DNA of 64,000 bases from Squalus acanthias (lineage: Eukaryota), in the NCBI GenBank assembly GCA_030390025.1, contig CM059432.1, positions 930,001 to 994,000 on the forward strand, written 5' to 3'. A program made the translations under genes and the position numbers. Below, piece after piece: positions 8,185 to 64,000 of this stretch. The first letter of the stretch is position 1, and every line of letters begins with the position of its first letter. The notes under the pieces are model-generated. The model saw only the letters and a program-made list of their open reading frames with translations, was not told where the DNA came from and did not search any database.

Positions 8185-8341
8185 GCCACGGAGGGACCAC
8201 TATTTCCCAGATCTTCACCATTTGAAGTATGAGATTGAAGATGGCACCACACCCAATGGAAGAGCCGTTCGCTTTGGTTTTGATCCACAGGAGTTCCTGA
8301 ACTTCAGCTGGAGGGGCTATGCACAACTGTCAACAGTGCAA
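8185..8341 (+). CDS. LAMA3: LAMA3 exon [53 protein letters not shown]
   Basis: gaag|G...CAA|gtatgt; 157 nt, phase 2->0; KYEIEDGxTPNGR and FSWRGYAQ motifs of alpha3/alpha5 laminins. Confidence 0.95.
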
Positions 8342-8346
8342 GTATG

Positions 8347-8872
8347 TGATCAAAGAGTCTGGGGAAAGGAGGGTCTGGGGAAAGGAGGGTCTGGGGAAAG
8401 GAGAGTCTGGTGATCAAAGAGTCTGGAGAAAGGAGAGTCTGGTGATCAAAGAGTCCGGGGAGAGGAGGGTCCGGGGAGAGGAGGGTCCGGGGAGAGGCGG
8501 GTCCGGGGAGAGGCGGGTCCGGGGAGAGGCGGGTCCGGGGAGAGGAGGGTCCGGGGAGAGGAGGGTCCGGGGAGAGGAGGGTCCGGGGAGAGGCGGGTCC
8601 GGGGAGAGGAGGGTCCGGGGAGAGGAGGGTCCGGGGAGAGGAGGGTCCGGGGAGAGGTGGGTCCGGGGAGAGGAGGGTCCGGGGAGAGGAGGGTCCGGGG
8701 AGAGGAGGGTCCGGGGAGAGGAGGGTCCGGGGAGAGGCGGGTCCGGGGAGAGGCGGGTCCGGGGAGAGGCGGGTCCGGGGAGAGGCGGGTCCGGGGAGAG
8801 GAGGGTCCGGGGAGAGGCGGGTCCGGGGAGAGGCGGGTCCGGGGAGAGGCGGGTCCGGGGAGAGGCGGGTCT
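8347..8872 (+). repeat. G-rich 16-bp minisatellite (GGGTCCGGGGAGAGGM)n
   Basis: about 26 near-perfect units at 8453-8871, preceded by degenerate units. Confidence 0.95.
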
Positions 8873-9929
8873 GACTCTTTCAAATATGCTGGAAGGAGCT
8901 TCATAAACATGTTTACCGTGGCTAAATTTGTACGATGCAAACCTTTTGCCCATTTAAAGAGATTAAAAGAAAATATGTACCAATAAGTTTGAAAAGATAA
9001 TTAGAAACATATATGTTTTCCAGCATTTAATAAATAAAAATTCTTGCAATTTTTAAAGTTAGATGGCAATTGGATTAATTGAGAAAATAAGGTACTAGAT
9101 GCTCATGGGAGGGAGTTTAGGGGTGTGTTTGCATGATTTACTGTTTGTGCCGAGCTTGTGCTCGATGGTAAGATTATTGACGGGATAAGTGCGTGCGTGG
9201 GCTCTATTTTCATGGCAGTTGCACAATTCAGGAAAATTAAACCCCACTCCAAAATCATCAGTTTTTGTAGTAAAAGTAACCGGCCCAGTTTTCGCGGAGC
9301 CAGGCAAAAGTTGAGCAGGTTGACATTCCAGTTATATCCCAGTGATTGAATTTGTTTTGATCACAATCTGAGTTCAACGTAAGGCAACACGAAAGCCGCT
9401 TGTAAATCAGACGACAATGTGACTCCCCACACGCTGAGATGCTGCCATGTTATGTGGGCCGTAGAGAGGATTGTTTGTTCTTTTATGTTGGGTAAGTACA
9501 GATATTTTCCCTCTTCCCCAGGCGGGCGGTTTGTTTATTTAATTATATAACGTTTTATGATTTCAGTTGCAGGAGTCCTTTGTTAAAATATTACGATTGT
9601 CTTCTAGTCACTTGGCTATGCCGCTCTACTTGTTCTCAGACGCAGCAAGCAGCATTTCTGTTTATGCGGCTGACAGCCCATTTCTCTTTCTCTGCGCCTT
9701 CCATTTAAGCTTGGTTTTTCCTTCACGAGAGTACTTTTCCAATGTCACGCTCCCTCTCTAATGTCCCGGGTGAACCATTGTCTTTAGGGGAAAATTATTG
9801 CTGGAGAGTGACTCTATGAATAGACATTATTGGGGGCGAATTTCCATGGGAGTTCTCCCAACTCCTTAACACCATTTTCCTGAGGTTTTCGTGGCTCTTC
9901 CTCCAAAGTTACGGCATGCAAGCACCGGG

Positions 9930-10308: not shown

Positions 10309-10796
10309 GAGGGCGAACCCTTACGGGAATTTGCCAGCATTATTTTGTGGGTCATATTCCATTCTTTCTAATGGTGGTTTAGTACTGGAATAACCTTTCT
10401 GTGATATTCTATATTAGATATTCACAGTCAGACTCCACGAGAATACAGTTGTGACCCGTATATAAGTAATGTATGTTTGCAGGTAGTCCCCTGGTATATT
10501 ATGAGAATTCAACTTTTCACACTATAAAGAGCTCACCAATTGTAAGTTATCGTATAACAAACTTGGTGTAATCCTCTGCAATATTGTAATTTAGGTTTTG
10601 AATTGAGCTTGTTATGTATTTTTAAATCTTTTTGGTCAGATAACTCTGCTGCTGACTCGCTAAGGTTTGGGGTTAACAGATCAGACAACGCTATTGGTTG
10701 CTTTGTGGTGTGCGAGTGCTAGCTAGGGTGATTCTTCTGCTGTTGGTGGAGTTCAGGTTTTCCCTTATTCTCCTTTGAATGCTTTTTTCTTCCCAG

Positions 10797-10935
10797 CCAG
10801 AGGTGGTCATGTCTATCACTGTGACTTCTCCTAATCTGTTTCGCATAATCTTCCGTTACAAGAACCGTACCCCAAAGCCTGTTAGAGGAAGGATCTCAAT
10901 CACTGAGGAAGTAAATGTTGATTCTTGCTGTGACT
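10797..10935 (+). CDS. LAMA3: Alternative exon E1 (LAMA5-like): PEVVMSITVTSPNLFRIIFRYKNRTPKPVRGRISITEEVNVDSCCD
   Basis: ttttttcttcccag|CCA...GACT|gtaagt; 139 nt, phase 0->1, open frame; aligns by eye with recalled LAMA5 [25 protein letters not shown]...GRVSVREE. Confidence 0.82.
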
Positions 10936-11170
10936 GTAAGTGGCTTTCATTTCTGCACCTAGTTTGTCCACCATCTTTCCCTACTCTTAACATACCAACC
11001 TCCGACCCTTATTTATCTGTACGAGGGGATTCCCTTTGACTTTGAAGGATCTCCCTATAACTGGCTGGTCTTTATTCTGCATGAGCTCCCTCGACTAGCA
11101 CTAGCACTGCTGCTAACTCTGCTTCTAGATCACCCCACCAGTCATGTGTTAATTAACTTCACTTTTACAG

Positions 11171-11303
11171 AATAACGTGAGGGTAAGAGTGCATGTGGAG
11201 AATAGAAACCTCAATTTGTTCCGCATCGCCTTGAGATATATTAACCCGGGATTCACTACTGTGTACGGCCGTGTAGCAGTTTATCAAGCTCAACAAAGCA
11301 CAG
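11171..11303 (+). CDS. LAMA3: Alternative exon E2 (LAMA3-type): NNVRVRVHVENRNLNLFRIALRYINPGFTTVYGRVAVYQAQQST
   Basis: cttttacag|AAT...CAG|gtaagg; 133 nt, phase 0->1; resembles recalled human LAMA3 NDVRITLNVGKSSGSLFRVILRYVNPG. Confidence 0.9.
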
Positions 11304-11480
11304 GTAAGGCTGAGCAGTGTAGAGGGTTCAAAAACTCGCCAGCCAGATTGATTGCCATTTTACGGTAAGTAATGAAAGTATTTTTTAAATCCTTTTGGGT
11401 TTTGTCTAATACACCGAGTGCTGCATTTGCATGGGTAACATGGGTCGCCAACTCTGTTTGGACATATTCCTGGAGGTTTC

Positions 11481-11532
11481 GTCACATGACCTTCCGCTTC
11501 CAACCGCCCCGCCCCCGCCCCCGCCATTGGTC
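11481..11532. promoter_or_regulatory. Cluster of promoter-type motifs (E-box, ETS, GC boxes, reverse CCAAT)
   Basis: GTCACATGAC, CTTCCG, CCGCCCCGCCCCCGCCCCCGCC and ATTGG within about 50 bp. Confidence 0.35.
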
Positions 11533-11716
11533 GCCTCACACATCAATCTCGCGGCGCCCCACCTTCCCACAGCCAACTGGGAAGCGGACCGACTCTTCAT
11601 TACTCGATTGAATGATTCTTGACTGTCAGTCAAACAGCCTTTTCTCCCAGCTCCAATATTTTTATAACTAATAAACGAAAGTGTTCAAAGAAATTTCTTT
11701 AAAAAAAAAGCACAAG

Positions 11717-11998
11717 CTCTCTCTCGGTCTCTCTCTCTCTCCCTCTCTCTCTCTCTCTCGGTCTCTCTCTCTCTCCCTCTCTCTCGGTCTCTCTCTCTCC
11801 CTCTCGGTCTCTCTCGGTCTCTCTCTTTCTCCCTCTCTCTCTCTCTCTCGGTCTCTCTCTCTCTCCCTCTCTCTCGGTCTCTCTCTCTCCCTCTCGGTCT
11901 CTCTCGGTCTCTCTCTTTCTCCCTCTCGGTCTCTCTCTCTCTCTCTCTCGGTCTCTCTCTGTCCCTCCCGGTCTCTCTCTGTCCCTCTCTGTGTCTTT
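11717..11998. repeat. (TC)n-derived compound microsatellite
   Basis: ctctctcggt / ctctctcc repeats. Confidence 0.95.
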
Positions 11999-12629
11999 GG
12001 GCTGAATTTTCCGGGGCGGTAGTGGGCGAGATCAGTGGCGGGTCGGGTGGGAAAGTTGTTATTTTTGACAGTGGGTCGGGAACCCGCTGTCATCTCGCTC
12101 CCACGTGCCTTTCCCACAGGCGCGTCTGTCATCGCGGAGTCGACCTGACCGGCAGTGGCGGGGGACCCAATTGAGATCATTATCAGGGAGTTTACAGACA
12201 CTTAAGAGCCTTTTTTCACTTACTGTTTAAATTTCCCTGCATGGCCATGGGATTCACGCAGCTCGGGAACCCCGTCTGTCAACCTGAGTCGTGAGTTCCG
12301 TGGCCATTGCTCCAGCTGATTACTTGACAGCATGAAAAACAAAGCAAAATAAAAACATGTTGATTACATCAGCCAACAGATTGATGGAGATTCTGTTCTA
12401 CTTGAAAAGCTACTGGTAAATGTTCATTCAGAAATTCCTGATGGGATGTAAGTCCTACCCTGGATGGTGAGGGAAATAGATTTTTCACTGGCCATTCTCG
12501 GCTGTTGCCTTCCAACTCAACAGTAATTGCAGTGAATTGATCTGCACTATAAAAAATGACATATAACCTTTAAATAAATTTTTGTTGTTTCTGGTCAGGT
12601 TTTTCTCACAGTATACTGTGATTGTCCAG

Positions 12630-14973
12630 TTACACATTAAATCAAGGCTATAGAGATAGTGGATGCATTGGTTGTCATCTTCCAAAATTCCATAGATTCC
12701 AGAACGGTTCCCACTGTAGGATTCTGCTTCTTCAACTGAGAAGCTTAAGGGTTGACCCGTAGGAAAGACACAACAACAGGTAGTCTTAGTTCAACTATTT
12801 TACTTGATTAGTCAACAGTAAGCAAACAATACATACACTTCCTTGGTACAAGTCCAAACGATTGATTGGTTCGGTTGAGCTCTTGTAGGTCTTTGTGTGG
12901 GGAATCAACTCACCCGGCTGCAGTATAGCTGCTTAGTCTCACAGTCCTTTATATCCCCTGGGTCAGCTGATATCTATCTGTCCTTTACGTGATGTTTTTC
13001 CTGTTTGTCCACTCTTGGTGCGTCATGCCGTACCGGCCGTCTCGGCAATTACGGTTTTGACCAATGCTCAACATGATGTTCCGCTCTTGTTGCAAGGTTT
13101 CAAATACAATCATATCTTCTTTCAACACATACCCACAGGATTCAGTGTTAGCAAACTCAATCAATAGCAGTGATTATATATAAGAGACATCATCAAGGAC
13201 ACTTTGGAGTTCCATAGCTTTCTTATCGAAGAGTCTATGAATTGAATAGGCCTGTGTGGTTCCTCGGCACTTATCACAAAGAGGAGCATAAGATCTAATC
13301 AACAGCTAAAGCCTCCAAGGACAAGCTTTTCTCTTTGTTGGCTGCAATAGTTTCTACTGCCTATGCACAAGGCTTACTGGGTAGTTTTCTGGTCAAGTAA
13401 ACCATACATTTAAATGGAGTCCACATCCTTATTACAAGTACATGATTGTGTACGGTTTCTTCACTCCCTGCACCTCCAGAAAATGGTACAAGTTATACAT
13501 ACACTCCTTCACCACGGATTGGAAGGTAGCAAATGTAACCCCACTATTTAAGAAAGGAGGGAGAGAGAGAATGGGGAACTACAAACCAGTTAGCCTGACA
13601 TCAGTAGTAGGGAAAATGCTAGAATCTATTATTAAGGACGTGGTAACAGGGCACTTAGAAAATAATAATAGGATTGGGCAGAGTCAACACGGATTTATAA
13701 AAGGGAAATTGTGTTTGATGAATCTGTTAGAGTTTTTTGAGGTTGTAACTAGCAGAATAGGTAAGGGGGATCCAATGGATGTGGTGTATTTGGATTTTCA
13801 GAAGGCATTCGATAAGGTGCCACACAAGAGGTTATTAAACAAAATTAGGGCTCATGGAATTGGGGTTAATATACTCGCATGGATTGAGGATTGGTTAACG
13901 GACAGAAAACAGAGAGTAGGAATAAACGGGTCATTTTCGGGTTGGCAGGCTGTAACTAGTGGGGTACCGCAAGGATCAGTGCTTGGGCCTCAGCTATTCA
14001 CAATCTACATCAATGATTTGGATGAGGGGACCAAATGTAATATATCCAAGTTTGCTGATGATACAAAGCTGGGTGGGAATGTAAGTTGTGAGGAGGATGC
14101 AAGGAGGCTTCAAGGGGATATAGACAGGCTAAGTGAGTGGGCAAGAACATGGCAAATGGAATATAATGTGGAGAAATGTGAAGTTATCCACTTTGGTAGG
14201 AAAAATAGAAAAGCAGAGTATTTTTTAAATGGTGAGAGATTGGGAAATGTTGGTGTTCAGAGGGACCTGGGTGTCCTTGTACACGAATCACTGAAAGTTA
14301 ACATGCAGGTACAGCAAGCAATTAGGAAAGCAAATTGTATGTTGGCCTTTATTACAAGAGGATTTGAGTATGAGAGTAAAGACATCTTACTGCAATTATA
14401 TAGGGCCCTGGTGAGACCACACCTGGAGTATTGTGTACAGTTTTGGTCTCCTTACCTAAGGAAGGATATACTCGCCATAGAGGGAGTGCAGCGAAGGTTC
14501 ACCAGACTGGTTCCTGGGATGGGGGGATTGTACTATGAGGAGAGATTGAGTAGACTAGGCCTATATTCTCTAGAGTTTAGAAGAATGAGAGGTGATCTCA
14601 TTGAAACATACAAAATTCTTACAGGGCTTGACAGGGTAGATGCAAGGAGGATGTTTCCCTTGGCTGGGGAGTCTAGAACCAGGGGTCACAGTCTCAGAAT
14701 AAGGGGTCGGCCATTTAGGACTGAGATGAGGAGAAATTTCTTCACTCAGAGGGTGGTGAATCTTTGGAATTCTCTACCCCAGAGGGCTGTGGAGGCTCAA
14801 TCGTTGAGTATATTCAAGACAGAAATCGATAGATTTTTGGATATTAAGGGAATAATATGGGGATAGTGCAAGAAAGTGGAGATGAGGTAGAAGATCAGCC
14901 ATGATCTTATTGAATGGCAGAGCAGGCTCGAGGGGCCAAATGGCCTACTCCTGCTCCTATTTCTTATGTTCTT
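12630..14973 (+). mobile_element. CR1 LINE 3' half with an uninterrupted RT frame (13512-14866), split by a solo LTR
   Basis: YLDFQKAFDKVPH, GVPQGSVLGP and KFADDTK motifs; tail ttcttatgttctta. Confidence 0.95.
12715..13511 (-). mobile_element. Solo LTR (797 bp)
   Basis: termini TGTAGGA...TCCTTCA; 4-bp TSD ccac; the CR1 rejoins when it is removed; TATA-like GATATAAAGG on the minus strand near 12950. Confidence 0.8.
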
Positions 14974-15731
14974 ATCAACCATAACAATTTCATTCTCATC
15001 ACTCATTCCACTGGTTCAATTTGCTTTCAGTCCCTGAATATAACTTATTTAATTTTTCAGTCTGAGACCTTGGGGGTGAATTTCTGCAGAGGTTCTCTCA
15101 CTTGTCCATTGTTAACTTCAACAGAAGAGCTGCAGAAATCCCAGAATCACATAAGACACTGTTTGTCAAGTTTCCGCAGCTCTTCCGCTGAACTTGCATA
15201 AGATTGTAAATCCACCCCTTTACAATCACATTTAAAATCTGCTTAATTTTATGTATTACCTATACACTCACATCTTTTATTTGTACCAGTTACTGACACG
15301 AAAGTCTATAGATTTGTGACTAAAGCAACAATAAATTCCCAATGAATGTACTTTTTTAGTTATGTTCTTGATCATATTTGTAGATGGCGTCATATTACTT
15401 AATGATAATATTACTTAAATATTTCTTTGTCACTCATATATAACTTTTATTATATTATTGTAGAATAAAGATTCAACACCCACTTTGTTAGATTAAACTT
15501 AAAATTTTATGTGGCCAGGGTCCCTGTAAAGATCCCGGCTGAAAACGCGTCATGAAAACACGTCACCAGACCCCCTCCATCTCATTGTGCCGGGTAACGC
15601 ACTGGGCGGGACTTAATAGGCCCCATTAAGGTAAGTTTATTTTCAACAGTGGGATGGAGCCAGCAGCGGGGTCGCGACCCCCCACGGACACCGGCCGCAC
15701 CGGACCCGCCCAGGCAAAGGAAATTCTGGCC

Positions 15732-16740
15732 TTTGTGTCTCTCTCTCTCTGTCTCTTTCTCTCTTTCTTTCTCTCTGTCTCTGTCTGCCTGTCTCTCTCT
15801 CTCTTTCTCTCTCTCTCTCTTTCTCGCTGTCTCTTTCTCGCTGTCTCTTTCTCGCTGTCTCTTTCTCGCTGTCTCTGTCTCTGTCTCTGTCTGTCTCTCT
15901 CTCTCTGTCGCTCTCTGTCTCTCTGTGTGTCTCTCTCTCTGTGTCTCTGTCTCGCTGTCTCTCTCGCCGTCTCCCTCTCGCTGTCTCCCTCTCGCTGTCT
16001 CCCTCTCGCTGTCTCCCCCTCGCTGTCTCCCTCTCGCTGTCTCCCCCTCGCTGTCTCCCCCTCGCTGTCTCCCCCTCGCTGTCTCCCCCTCGCTGTCTCC
16101 CCCTCGCTGTCTCCCCCTGTGCTGTCTCCCCCTGTGCTGTCTCCCCCTGTGCTGTCTCCCCCTGTGCTGTCTCCCCCTGTGCTGTCTCCCCCTGTGCTGT
16201 CTCCCCCTGTGCTGTCTCCCCCTGTGCTGTCTCCCCCTGTGCTGTCTCCCCCTGTGCTGTCTCCCCCTGTGCTGTCTCCCCCTGTGCTGTCTCCCCCTGT
16301 GCTGTCTCCCCCTGTGCTGTCTCCCCCTGTGCTGTCTCCCCCTGTGCTGTCTCCCCCTGTGCTGTCTTCCCCCTCTCTGTCTCTCTCTCTCTGTGTCTGT
16401 CTGTCTCTCTCTCTCTGTCTCGCTCTCTGTCTCGCTCTCTGTCTCGCTCTCTCTCTCTCTCAGTCTCTCTGTCTCTCTCTGTGTCTCGCTTTCTGTCTCG
16501 CTCTCTCTCTCTGTCTCTCTCTCTCTGTCTCGCTCTCTCTGTCTCGCTCTCTCTGTCTCGCTCTCTCTGTCTCGCTCTCTCTCTCTGTCTCTCTCTCTCT
16601 GTCTCGCTCTCTCTGTCTCGCTCTCTCTGTCTCGCTCTCTCTGTCTCGCTCTCTCTGGCTCTCGCTCTCTCTGTCTCGCTCTCTCTGGCTCTCGCTCTCT
16701 CTCTGTCTCTGTCTCGCTCTCTCTCTCTCTGTCTCATCTC
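15732..16740. repeat. Compound TC-rich micro/minisatellite with a 15-bp (CTGTCTCCCCCTGTG)n core
   Basis: direct inspection; core about 16107-16366. Confidence 0.95.
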
Positions 16741-17204
16741 ACAGTCTAAACAAAGTGGCAGTGTCCCAGAGATTCGTCTTTAATTCCTGGCGACTCCAGG
16801 ACAATCCTGGAGGGTTGGCAACGCCAGTAATATAACCTGTGGTGACTTGAGCCCCTGCCTTGGAGTGGCTGCAGTTGTACTTGAGCAGTAACTGTACACG
16901 CAGCGTCCAACCTCAGCTAACAACCTTATTGACTTGGAATTTCCTTGATAGCACTATTACATCGAAATTTACATTGATCTTTGCTGACAGGAATTTCCGC
17001 CTAAATTTCCTGCAGAGCTCGCTTGCCTTTGCTGCAACATCAAAGCCAGTGTAAAACAAGTGTAAATTCTGCAGTATTATTTTGCATTCTGATTCCTATT
17101 TTCTAATTGGCTGGGACAGAGGTTTAAATTAATGGTTGGTTTTTGTCATGTCCCAATAAAGTTGATCAAAACCTGTACGCTAACATTTTTTTTACTTTTT
17201 AAAA

Positions 17205-18767: not shown

Positions 18768-18910
18768 TGTCGCCCCAGGCAAAAGAGATTATCTTTGCTC
18801 GTAGTAATGAGCCATCTTTTGTTACGGTCTCGAGGAGTAACTATGGTGACCCTTTCCCCCTCACACCCGGGACTTGGACTGTCAACATTGAGGCAGAAGG
18901 CGTGCTCTTG
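18768..18910 (+). CDS. LAMA3: LAMA3 exon F: SPQAKEIIFARSNEPSFVTVSRSNYGDPFPLTPGTWTVNIEAEGVLL
   Basis: ctcctag|TG...TTG|gtgaga; 143 nt, phase 1->0. Confidence 0.93.
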
Positions 18911-19076: not shown

Positions 19077-19183
19077 GATTATCTGATCCTGCTGCCCAGT
19101 GATTATTATGAAGCTCCGATTCTGCAGTTACAAGTGACCAATCCCTGCACTTATGCAGCCAATCCAGAACGATCGGGGAAAAA
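19077..19183 (+). CDS. LAMA3: LAMA3 exon G: DYLILLPSDYYEAPILQLQVTNPCTYAANPERSGK
   Basis: cactag|GAT...AA|gtaagt; 107 nt, phase 0->2. Confidence 0.93.
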
Positions 19184-22366: not shown

Positions 22367-24970
22367 TATGAGGGGATTTGATAGAGTAAATAAGGAGAAA
22401 CTGTTTCCACTGGCAGGAGGGTCGGTAACCAGAGGACACAGATTTAAGATAATTGGCAAAAGAACCAGAGACGACATGAGAATTTTTTTTTTTACCCAGC
22501 GAGTTGTTATGACCTGGAACGCGCTGCCTGAAAGGGCGGTGGAAGCAGATTCAACAGTAACTTTCAAAAGGGAATTGGATAAATACTTGAAAAGGAAAAA
22601 TTTGCAGAGCTATGGGGAAAGAGCAAGTGAGTGAGACCGGATGGGATGCATCCTAGGATGCTGAGGAAGGTTAAGGAGGAAATCGCGGAGGTACTCGTCA
22701 TAATCTTCCAATCCTCCTTAGATACAGAAGTGGTGCCAGAGGACTGGAGAATTGCAAATGTTATACCCTTCTTCAAAGAAGGGTGTAAGGATAAACCCAG
22801 CAACTACAGGCCAGTCAGTTTAACCTCGGTAGTGGGGAAGCTTTTGGAAATGATAATCAGGGACAAAATTAACAGTCATTTGGACAAGTGTGGATTAATT
22901 AAGGAAAGCCAGCACGAATTTGTTAAAGGCAAGTCATGTTTAACTAACTTGATCGAATATTTTGATGATGTAACAGACAGGGTTGATGAGGGCAATGCGG
23001 TTGACATGGTGTATATGGACTTCCAAAAGGCGTTTGATAAAGTGCCACATATTAGGCTTGCCAGCAAAGTTGAAGCCCATGGAATAAAAGGGACAGTGGC
23101 AGCATGGATACGAAATTGGCTAAGTGACAGGAAACAGAGAGTAGTGGTGAACGATTGTTTTTCAGATTGGAGGAAGGTATACAGTGGTGTTCCCCAGGGG
23201 TCAGTACTAGGACCACTGTTTTTCTTGATATATATTAATGACTTGGGTGTACTGGGCACAATTTCAAAATTTGCAGATGACACAAAACTTGGAAGTATAA
23301 TGAACAGTGAGGAGGAGAGTGATAGACTCCAAGAACACATAGACAGGCTGGTGAAATGGGCGGACACGTGGCAGATGAAATTTAACACAGAAAAGTGCGA
23401 AGTGATACATTTTGGTAGGAAGAACGAGCAGAGGAAATATAAACTAAAGGACACAATCCTAAAGTGGGTGCATGAACAGAGACCTGGGAGTATATGTGCA
23501 CAAATCATTGAAGGTGGCAGGGCAGGTTGAGAAAACGGTTAAAAGAGTATACGGGATACTAGTCTTCATGAATAGAGGCATAGGGGGAAAAATTGCATCG
23601 CGCCCCCTTTGGGGCGCTAACTTCGCTGGGGCGCTACTTTTGAAAAAATTAGCACCCCCAAGGCCGAAATTCATCGGTATCACCCCAAGAGGGAAGCGGG
23701 GTGCTACTGGAATCGCCCCGCCTCCCTCTTGGGGCACTGCGAGGGAATATCGCGGCGCTACGCATTGCGGCACGTCGCACCGCAGTACTGCAGGCCTTCC
23801 TCCCCTTCTTAAAGGCCTTGCGCAGCGTGACCCGGGGCCCAGCTGGGCCACCAGGGATCGGAGTGCCGGCAAAAGAGCCCGGCACTCAAGAGGCGTGCCG
23901 GGCTCACAGAGCGCAGCCGGCACTCCGCGGGGGGGGCTGCTGAGGAGGCCGGGGACGGCAACGGGGGCAAGTGCTGGCAGGGCCAAAAATGGCCGCCCGG
24001 CACCTCGCCTTTAATTAGCGCCACCCCGGCCACAGGTAGGCCCCCCTGACCCCGTTGGACATAGCGTCCGGCGATAAGTCAGGGGGCGATACCAAAGATC
24101 GCGGCCGGGGCGCTGCACACGGCAATGACGTCATCGCCAGTGGCGCAGCGCCATGGGGTGCTAGCGGTTACCGCCGCCGCTAACCTCCCGCTGGATTTCA
24201 TGGGAGGTGTTGGCAGTGCCGCGCCCGGGCGCTAGTTGCTTTGGGCACTAATGGGAGGCGCAAAGCAACTGAATTTTTCCCCCATAGAGTACAAAAGCAA
24301 AGAAGTTATGATGAACCTTTATAAATCACTGGTTCGGTCTCAACTGAAGTATTGTGTCCAATTCTGGGCACTGCACTTTAGGAAGGATGTGAAGGCCTCA
24401 GAGAGGGAGCAGAAAAGATTTACGAGAATTATTCCAGGGTTGAGGGACGTCAGTTATGTGGATAGACTAGAGAAGCTGGGGTTGTTCTCCTTAGAGCAGA
24501 GAAGATTGAGAGGAGATTTGATGGAGGTGTTCAACATCATGAGGGGTCTGGACAGAGTAGATGGAGAGAAACTGTTCCCATTGGCGGAAGGGTCGAGAAC
24601 CAGAGGACACAGATTTAAGGTGATTGGCAAAACAACAGAAGGTGACATGAGGAAAAACTTTTTACGCAGCGGGTGGTTAGGATCTGGAATGCACTGCCTG
24701 AAAGGGCGGTGGAGGCAGATTCAATCATGGCTTTCAAAAGGGAATTGGATAAGTACCTGAAGGAAAAAAAATTTGCAGGGCTATGGGGAAAGGGCGGGGG
24801 AGTGGGACTAGCTGAAGTGCTCTTGCAGAGAGCCGGCACGGGCTCGACGGGCTGAATGGCCTCCTTCTGTGCTGTAACCATTCTATGATTCTATGAATTG
24901 GAGAGCTCTTTCAAAGAGCTGGCACAGGCACGATGGCTGAATGGCCTCTACTGTGCTATATGATTCTATG
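22367..24970 (+). mobile_element. CR1 LINE RT to 3' end, interrupted by a TIR element
   Basis: ORF 22631-23530 (YMDFQKAFD, GVPQGSVLGP, FADD); frame resumes after 24283. Confidence 0.92.
23583..24283. mobile_element. PIF/Harbinger-type non-autonomous element (701 bp, GC-rich)
   Basis: TIR GGGGGAAAAATT / AATTTTTCCCCC; 3-bp TSD ATA; splits CR1 aatagaggc-ata-gagtac. Confidence 0.85.
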
Positions 24971-52795: not shown

Positions 52796-53007
52796 TCCAG
52801 CTACATCATCCAAATTCTGTACGGACTCTGTTAAGTCACTCGTGGCATTCTACAATAATGGAGCTCTACCCTGCCAGTGTAATGGAGAAGGTGCCACCAG
52901 CTCTGCGTGTAATCCACTTGGAGGCCAGTGTTCCTGCCGGCCAAATGTTATTGGACGTCGATGTGACAAATGTGCCACTGGTTATTATATGTTTCCCAAT
53001 TGTCGAC
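52796..53007 (+). CDS. LAMA3: LAMA3 exon P: PATSSKFCTDSVKSLVAFYNNGALPCQCNGEGATSSACNPLGGQCSCRPNVIGRRCDKCATGYYMFPNCR
   Basis: tttcag|T...C|gtaagt; 212 nt, phase 2->1; complete LE repeat. Confidence 0.95.
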
Positions 53008-62500: not shown

Positions 62501-64000
62501 GTTTGCGCCACTGCAGCCTGGTCCTCCTGACGACATCCCTGCTTGTGTCCTCCTGTGCAATGTGCAACCAGGCTGCGTTGGTGTCCTGGGGAGGTCTCCT
62601 CTGGCCTTGGAAGGGAAGAGAACCTCCCTGCATGTTGTGACTTCATCCATAAGCATATGGAGGAAGTCATGGGAGAGCCTGGGTGCAGCCGTGCACCTCT
62701 GTGCAGTGCTTGTCAGTGTTTGCAGCACCTCAATGCTGTAGAACACCGACAGCACAACTGTCAAAATGAATGCGGCCATGGCCCCTTTAAGGAAACCGGC
62801 TGATGACGCGTCATCAAATGACGTCATCAGACCCGCTTCCTTTTAATTGGCCGGGAACCCCGCAGGGCGGGCTTAACAAGCCCTAGTAACGGAAAATCCT
62901 TTTTACAGAGCGGCTGCAGCTGGGAGCGTGACTGGAATCTGCCAACCACCTCTCCCGCCGCGATCCCGCCTCCATGGCGAAATCGCTGCCCTTGTGTCTG
63001 TCTTCACGGAAGAAGACGCAAAAAATATTCCGGAAATAGTAGAGAACCAAGGGTCTAGTGAGAATGAAGAACTGAAAGAAATTATTATTAGTAAGGAAAT
63101 AGTACAATAGTACTTGAGAAATTAATGGGACTGAAAGCCGATAAATCCCCTGGACCTGACGGCTTACATCCTAGGGTTTTAAAAGAGGTGGTTATAGAGA
63201 TAGTTGATGCATTGGTTGTCATCTTTCAAAATTCCATAGATTCTGGAATGGTTCCCGTGGATTGGAAGGTAGCAAATGTAACCCTACTATTTAAGAAAGG
63301 AGGGAGAGAGAAAACGGGGAACTACAGCCTGACATCAGTAGTAGGGAAAATGCTAGAATCTATTATTAAGGACGTGGTAACAGGGCACTTAGAAAGTAAT
63401 AATAGGATTGGGTAGAGTCAACACGGATTTATGAAAGGGAAATCATGTTTGACAAATCTGTTAGAGTAATTTGAGGTTGTAACTAGCAGGATAGATAAGG
63501 GGGAACCAGTGGATGTGGTGTATTTGGATTTTCAGAAGGCATTCGATAAGGTGCCACACAAGAGGCTATGAAACAAAATAAGGATTGGGGGTAATATACG
63601 AGCATGGATTGAGGATTGGTTAACGGACAGAAAACAGAGAGTAGGAATAAACGGATCATTTTCGGGTTGGCAGGCTGTAACTAGTGGGGTACCATAAGGA
63701 TCAGTGCTTGGGCCTCACCTATTTACAATCTCTATCAATGATTTGGATGAGGGGACCAAATGTAATATATCCAAGTTTGCTGATGATACAAAGCTGGGTG
63801 GGAATGTAAGTTGTGAGGAGGATGCAAAGAGGCTGCAAGGGGATATAGACAGGTTATGTGAGTGGGCAAGAACTTGGCAAATGGAATATAATGTGGAGAA
63901 ATGTGAAGTTATCCACTTTGGTTAAAAAAAGTAGAAAATCAGTGTATTATTTAAATGGTGAGATTGGGAAATGTTGGTGTTCAGATGGACCTGGGTGTCC
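59545..64000 (+). mobile_element. Degenerate CR1 LINE (ORF1 esterase, endonuclease, RT), running off the window
   Basis: LGTNDIG (59575-59907), YLNARS, MGDF...SDH, KFADDTK. Confidence 0.9.
61243..62991. mobile_element. PIF/Harbinger deletion derivative with a Myb/SANT-like ORF remnant (minus strand, about 62478-62700)
   Basis: ends GGGCTGAATTTTGCC / GGCGAAATCGCTGCCC inside CR1 aaatacttt|gtgtctg; APRLSHDFLHMLMDEV..REVLFP / AAWLHIAQE..RRTRLQWRKPFNDL. Confidence 0.8.

Follow-up and report, generated by a model that had tools for sequence, protein, structure and literature searches.

In this study, we found that a laminin alpha-3 gene of the shark Squalus acanthias contains two neighboring exons, here named E1 and E2, which we consider, with a probability of roughly 0.88, to be a tandem-duplicated pair of mutually exclusive exons in a gene of the long, alpha-3B-type form. 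The two exons are adjacent and homologous, share the same phase and are coupled through the reading frame, occur one at a time in spliced transcripts of either form, and are conserved across species. Unless another contig or protein is named, all positions below are those of the window, that is, the whole stretch of 64,000 nucleotides that was analyzed.

To identify the gene, 1.84 billion representative proteins were searched with a laminin-EGF exon of the window (52797-53006). A total of 150 proteins were returned, 54 of which matched at least one of the exon peptides D to G. The best relative is laminin alpha-3 isoform X2 of the catshark Scyliorhinus torazame, to which E1 is 98% identical over 46 residues, exon D 87% and exon F 82%. 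Within the five-member cluster of S. torazame alpha-3, isoforms X1 and X2 carry E1 and isoform X3 carries E2, as does the alpha-3-like record of Scyliorhinus canicula placed in the same cluster (marked low quality). E2 of the window is 83-89% identical to S. torazame X3 and the S. canicula protein, and the flanking exons are 82-87% identical. Both isoform types have already been modelled by NCBI's automatic pipeline in a related shark. As a whole, the exons of the window correspond to residues ~714-1481 of catshark alpha-3, with identities of 53-98%, and the catshark protein contains Laminin_N, EGF_laminin, Laminin_B, Laminin_I, Laminin_II and LG domains (Pfam). When single exon peptides of the window were compared with Pfam, the LE exon alone had a match and the others were at chance level. 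No laminin chain turned up when PDB sequences were searched with E1 and E2, and an E1 homologue search among proteins with a reach of 2000 residues returned nothing. Judged by its closest protein relatives, the gene in the window is evidently the laminin alpha-3 orthologue.

The pair is located on the plus strand between constitutive exons. Upstream of it lies exon D (8185-8341), with 85-87% identity to catshark laminin alpha-3; its end is in phase 0, with gtatgt as the next letters. The first alternative exon, E1, occupies positions 10797-10935 (139 nt, phase 0 to 1) and encodes 46 residues with two cysteines at the end; as read from the window sequence, it is preceded by ...ttcttcccag and followed by gtaagtggc. 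After an intron of 235 nt (10936-11170), in which one TGCATG is present at 11078-11083, the second alternative exon, E2, occupies positions 11171-11303 (133 nt, phase 0 to 1) and encodes 44 residues without cysteine, with ...cacttttacag before it and gtaaggctg after it in the window sequence. Downstream are the constitutive exon F (18768-18910), which enters in phase 1, and the next constitutive exon G (19077-19183), which was read in the window, joined in frame and matches catshark alpha-3. Both alternative exons are open from the first base, and each leaves one extra base (3n+1). Homology between them was detected by BLASTP, with 11 of 25 aligned residues identical (E 5e-6, for a single comparison), and a global alignment gave 12 identities in 42 positions. 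A relaxed local tblastn search of the 64-kb window with 12 exon peptides revealed no third exon copy, E1 and E2 being the only places with E<0.001. An initial sequence-only reading of this DNA had proposed two open exons with these lengths, phases, spacing and splice sites; the AG/GT sites are present at both exons, and translation together with BLASTP confirmed the phases and the mutual homology.

The reading frame was then examined by joining exons in silico by coordinate. Both D-E1-F-G and D-E2-F-G are open. Inclusion of both alternatives (D-E1-E2-F-G) leads to an immediate stop, TAA TAA at the E1/E2 joint, since E2 opens with AATAA and read-through from E1 is T/AA TAA (the slash marks the joint). 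Skipping of the pair (D-F-G) shifts the frame and leads to a stop 50 codons past the D/F joint. Coordinate joining thus upholds the earlier claim that one exon keeps the frame and that both or neither break it.

Spliced forms of the gene were sought in public sequencing runs. The search returned 20 rows from nine studies, none of them recorded as RNA, including 14 small assemblies guessed to be RNA, in which 0.20-0.56 of the sampled words were found. Four run assemblies (X1, X2, X5 and X7) were aligned to positions 10450-11620 of the window only; joints with exons D and F were read from the unaligned letters at the contig ends, as the D and F stretches carry long tandem repeats. In X5, a 189-nt contig consists of 30 letters, E1 and 20 letters, and a 184-nt contig consists of 30 letters, E2 and 21 letters. 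Similarly, X7 contains a 199-nt contig with E1 and a 193-nt contig with E2, with 30 flanking letters on each side. The contig letters before 10797 and before 11171 are the last 20-30 letters of exon D, which ends at 8341, and those after 10935 and after 11303 are the first 30 letters of exon F, which starts at 18768; a 20-letter test string of exon F had one match in the window, with 0 expected. Spliced D-E2-F was also found in X2 (a contig of 4423 nt) and in X1 (a contig of 268 nt). All four junctions by which the sequence-only reading could be checked (8341>10797, 8341>11171, 10935>18768 and 11303>18768) are therefore present in contigs. The contig pairs of X5 and X7 are the two arms of one bubble, as expected if D-E1-F and D-E2-F occur in one message population.

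Relative to the window, 4 of the 30 D-flank letters are changed in X7 and 1 of 21 letters in X5; therefore, both forms have been seen in at least two non-identical sources. The intron-less joints, along with the occurrence of each exon peptide at only two genomic places, suggest that the runs are of RNA origin, and a retrocopy is an unlikely source because the genome holds each exon peptide only at this gene and at its paralogue (see below). An E1-E2 joint (10935-11171) was found in none of the contigs of the four runs, and contigs show presence and cannot prove absence. X1 and X2 contain no spliced E1 contig; X2 has unspliced pieces over 10492-10960 and X1 has none over E1, a gap in cover that says nothing on E1 use. 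The contig word depths in X5 and X7 (3.5 and 10.9 for E1, 5.2 and 8.28 for E2, respectively) are no measure of usage either. In the contigs, the pair is mutually exclusive, with one exon per message and each form present.

Several kinds of repeats were observed in the window. At positions 11442-11500, contig depth was very high in each of the four runs, reaching 1433 in X7, and the flanks were unrelated. This segment is an interspersed repeat and not gene signal: a first look at the genome gave 1385 candidates, and 40 of them were scored as 89-100% identical (one being the window itself). A tandem minisatellite (~8400-8900), which is open in several frames on both strands and encodes GERRVRGE-like units, lies just past the exon D donor, and the intron between E2 and F contains long simple-sequence repeats at 11668-12200 and 15580-16830. 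Long open frames are present at 13385-14866, 22631-23530 and 63095-63922, and many shorter fragments like them fill introns; we take these frames to resemble retroelement reverse transcriptase.

It could be argued that only one exon of the pair contributes to the protein and that the other reflects splicing noise or is a relic in decay. Most database proteins indeed show one type per gene (119 of 120 listed alpha-5 proteins carry E1), and the S. canicula record carries E2 only. However, both forms are found as in-frame spliced contigs in two sequence-distinct runs, the 98% identity of the E1 protein to catshark is above that of the flanking exons, E2 is 86-89% identical to catsharks, and in alpha-5 both exon types have remained open across the range from rays to birds. 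We find it barely credible that either exon is a relic. Rather, both exon copies appear to be kept by selection across species.

A search of the 3.7-Gb genome with E1 and with E2 identified one further place for each, on the minus strand of contig C11 (16157233-16160361). This locus comprises D', E1' (136 nt), an intron of 266 nt, E2' (130 nt) and F', in the same order and phases as in alpha-3, with both E1' and E2' being 3n+1. In the exon tree described below, E1' and E2' group with ray alpha-5 exons (98/89 and 100/96), and we assign the gene as the alpha-5 paralogue because of this grouping. Read-through from E1' into E2' is T/AA TAG. Global alignment scores are 109 for E1 and E1' and 113 for E2 and E2', with cross pairs scoring 32-52. 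The first 12 letters of the intron after the E1 donor, GTAAGTGGCTTT, are identical in both paralogues despite the ancient separation of the genes, and the E2 acceptor context TTTTACAG/AATA is also common to both. The sequence-only reading had described E1 as LAMA5-like and E2 as LAMA3-like. The alpha-5 gene of the same genome has both, and the two types are types of exon. A split of the exons between the paralogues is not encountered in this genome, where both genes keep both.

With regard to the mechanism, every mature message would take exactly one of E1 and E2, the choice probably being set by regulated use of splice sites, and nonsense-mediated decay may eliminate wrong messages with both exons or neither. 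The reading frame provides at least a backup for exclusivity, given the stops at the co-inclusion joint in both paralogues. A TGCATG on the plus strand at 11428-11433, 125 nt downstream of E2, serves as a lead for regulated choice only. Three plus-strand copies are present within 356 nt around E2 (at 11078, at 11190 inside the exon, and at 11428) versus 18 in the 64-kb window, and we take TGCATG to be an RBFOX-type site. Alternatively, mutual exclusion could be achieved mainly by a dedicated RNA mechanism, such as competing intron pairings, steric hindrance or incompatible spliceosomes, and not by frame, decay and regulated choice. Two features conserved between the paralogues, whose separation dates to early vertebrate history, hint at such a cis element: the 12-letter block that follows the E1 donor, and the context of the E2 acceptor. 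However, the intron between the two exons measures 235 nt in this gene and 266 nt in the paralogue; crowding of donor and branch point would require a far shorter one, which argues against steric hindrance. All splice sites are ordinary GT-AG. As for competing pairings, 10 inverted repeats of only 10-15 nt each were found in 1151 nt of the window. Rfam gave nothing above threshold. We regard a dedicated mechanism as unlikely and prefer frame, decay and regulated choice.

The consequence of the exon swap for the protein was assessed using catshark alpha-3, in which the E1 stretch corresponds to residues 853-898. It lies inside a globular insert of ~570 residues that separates the first two blocks of laminin EGF repeats and that we take to be domain IVb, or L4a, of alpha-3B and alpha-5. 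In the Pfam version used, no model covers this insert, and Laminin_B is located further on at residues 1619-1755. An AlphaFold2 model of the insert, built on an alignment of 18 homologues that range from sharks to sea urchins, snails and amphioxus, has a mean pLDDT of 79.2 and a pTM of 0.67 and consists of three beta-rich modules. In this model, three consecutive strands of the first module (57-64, 68-77 and 84-92) and the low-confidence loop after them (95-102) correspond to the E1 stretch. Foldseek comparison with PDB structures returned tandem beta-sandwich proteins, including carbohydrate-binding-module arrays, discoidin-like proteins, reelin repeats and neuropilin b1b2, at the low TM-scores that a query of three modules would be expected to give. 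Outside the swapped stretch, the insert has ten cysteines, arranged as five close pairs. Since E1 contributes two further cysteines and E2 contributes none, parity is kept in both isoforms. The two cysteines of E1 may form a local disulfide in the loop, which is modelled with low confidence. The two proteins would differ solely in a stretch of 44-46 residues, which in the model comprises three beta-strands and a loop in the first of three beta-sandwich modules. The isoforms probably present different short-arm surfaces, the E1 form having an extra cysteine pair in the loop.

We also examined the spread of the two exon types among animals, with counts that refer to proteins examined and not to species surveyed. 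Using E2 of Komodo dragon alpha-5 as a query, seven squamate alpha-5 proteins with the E2 type were identified among 10 candidates. Using the D-to-G stretch of E1-type Komodo alpha-5, the best 120 of 400 matches, whose exons were typed by eye, comprised 119 proteins of the E1 type and one of the E2 type (Komodo X3); the former belong to monotremes, marsupials, placentals, birds, turtles, amphibians, coelacanth, ray-finned fishes and rays. From ten 90%-identity clusters among those listed, 102 further members were read, the large clusters being sampled in part; of these, 86 are E1, 14 are E2 and two are without the region. E2-type members were found in the clusters of birds (four, including chicken X3), turtles (three), zebrafish, gar and rays (two each) and bowfin (one), and in none of the 14 members read from each of the clusters of Xenopus, of marsupials, and of carnivores and other placentals, nor in the four read from salamanders. 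Annotated E2-type alpha-5 isoforms include chicken XP_040543739.1 and zebrafish XP_073794115.1. In the Varanus komodoensis model KAF7248623.1, a truncated E1 runs directly into E2, an annotation error arising from the pair. For alpha-3, for which few proteins were available, the E1 type is present in catshark and the teleost Denticeps, and the E2 type in catsharks, cobra, anchovies and cod.

These distributions also contradict the gene-based labels mentioned above: E2-type alpha-5 proteins in seven squamates and among 14 of the 102 cluster members speak against E2 as LAMA3-like, and the E1-type alpha-3 proteins of catshark and Denticeps against E1 as LAMA5-like. Among the proteins examined, mammalian and amphibian alpha-5 carry E1 only, and for all mammalian alpha-5 proteins this agrees with the proposed use of a single variant by mammalian LAMA5. 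Mammalian alpha-3 presumably uses E2 only. The accompanying statement that the shark lineage kept the pair proved too narrow, as the pair is found in alpha-5 of rays, bony fishes, squamates, turtles and birds. It appears that most sampled non-mammalian jawed vertebrates keep it in at least alpha-5. A reciprocal loss in mammals, leaving E1 in alpha-5 and E2 in alpha-3, is plausible but unproven.

The age of the pair was investigated by a tree of 59 chosen exon stretches (50 columns), including 17 alpha-5 E1, 11 alpha-5 E2, three alpha-3 E1, seven alpha-3 E2 and 21 invertebrate stretches. All vertebrate E2-type rows and Ciona savignyi form one clade (96/97), and all E1-type rows form another (87/94; the E1 clade is unstarred). 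E1 of the window falls with the alpha-5 E1 exons in the latter clade, as the sequence-only reading had anticipated. Constraining each exon type to stay together yielded trees that matched or surpassed the free one (p 0.58 and 0.65). In AU tests, a tree with all alpha-3 exons in one clade was rejected (p 0.023, 29 log-likelihood units worse), and a tree with all alpha-5 exons in one clade was disfavoured (p 0.077, 19 log-likelihood units worse). The free exon tree was blurred once a second variant from Styela was added. E1 and E2 are thus old and do not stem from a lineage-specific duplication. Since the exon trees group by type and not by gene, the exon duplication should predate the alpha-3/alpha-5 split; the pair thus appears to have arisen before the gene duplication of early vertebrates that gave alpha-3 and alpha-5, in line with the earlier suggestion of a mutually exclusive switch in their common ancestor.

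The same tree and tests bear on the possibility that alpha-3 and alpha-5 each acquired their second exon copy on their own, in which case the pair would be convergent and not ancestral. Tandem exon duplications have been reported to recur in the same genes (PMC9741552), the exon alignment is short for this question (50 columns), and the clade of all alpha-5 exons was not formally rejected at p 0.077. Nevertheless, the exon-type clades are supported (96/97 and 87/94), the clade of all alpha-3 exons is rejected (p 0.023), and the type-constrained trees match or surpass the free one. Moreover, the two genes agree in exon order, in phases and in a 6-nt length difference between the exons (139/133 and 136/130), and both have GTAAGTGGCTTT after E1 and TTTTACAG/AATA before E2. 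Convergence is in our opinion very improbable, and a single duplication before the gene split is preferred.

The pair may be older still. Among the annotated isoforms of an alpha-5-like protein of the tunicate Styela clava, five have a variant (variant a) ending in C-x-N-C, like vertebrate alpha-5 E1, and isoform X4 carries at the same position a second variant (variant b) resembling the Ciona stretch, both as seen in proteins only. In AU tests, the grouping of variant a with vertebrate E1 passes (p 0.50), as does that of variant b with Ciona and vertebrate E2 (p 0.60), and the grouping of the two Styela variants as sisters passes as well (p 0.58). The pair possibly predates the split of tunicates and vertebrates. 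One tentative scenario, to which we give well below even odds, is that the switch was present in the tunicate-vertebrate ancestor, passed through the early genome duplications into both alpha-3 and alpha-5, was kept for >450 million years in sharks, ray-finned fishes and sauropsids, and underwent reciprocal loss in mammals. If this is true, part of the difference between the short arms of human LAMA3 and LAMA5 would reflect a splice choice that became frozen.

Tandem-duplicated, mutually exclusive homologous exons have been catalogued in human genes (Hatje et al. 2017, PMC5740500; Martinez-Gomez et al. 2022, PMC9741552). Like the pairs in these catalogues, E1 and E2 are adjacent, homologous, of the same phase and of near-equal length; they are used one per message, are ancient, and swap a segment within a domain. 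Unlike those pairs, they are missing from the catalogues: LAMA3, LAMA5 and the word laminin are absent from the main and supplementary text of both articles (the supplement possibly being incomplete). This absence fits a pair that is invisible to human-centred catalogues, since in mammals each gene seems to hold a single exon of this kind. The separation of splice isoforms after gene duplication has also been defined, with 11 cases derived from human exon pairs (Abascal, Tress and Valencia 2015, PMC4494069). The present case is similar in that the either-or pair is older than the gene duplication and mammalian alpha-5 is of the E1 type, but it differs in that here and in many vertebrates separation is absent and both exons are kept; laminin is not mentioned in the main text of that article. 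Zebrafish lama5 has been listed among alternatively spliced genes, without detail (PMC13562739). RefSeq model isoforms of S. torazame alpha-3 and of alpha-5 from chicken, zebrafish, turtle, squamates, gar, bowfin and ray have the same exon types at the same place; unlike the pair described here, they are unnamed computer predictions, and some records mishandle the pair (the Varanus fusion and the low-quality S. canicula record). Our full-text literature searches found no article that describes this pair, which is already contained in automatic annotations.

Laminin alpha-3 and alpha-5 are core basement-membrane proteins that have been studied mostly in mouse and human, and the switch went unnoticed because it is seemingly absent in these two species. 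For work on splicing, it offers a clean example of two alternative exons that are older than a gene duplication and have been retained by both daughter genes. In mammals, the two forms may later have been divided between the genes, and human-centred catalogues cannot detect such cases. Because alpha-5 of zebrafish and chicken, two standard laboratory species, is annotated with both forms, isoform-specific knock-outs in these animals could probe directly the function of the large globular part of the laminin short arm.
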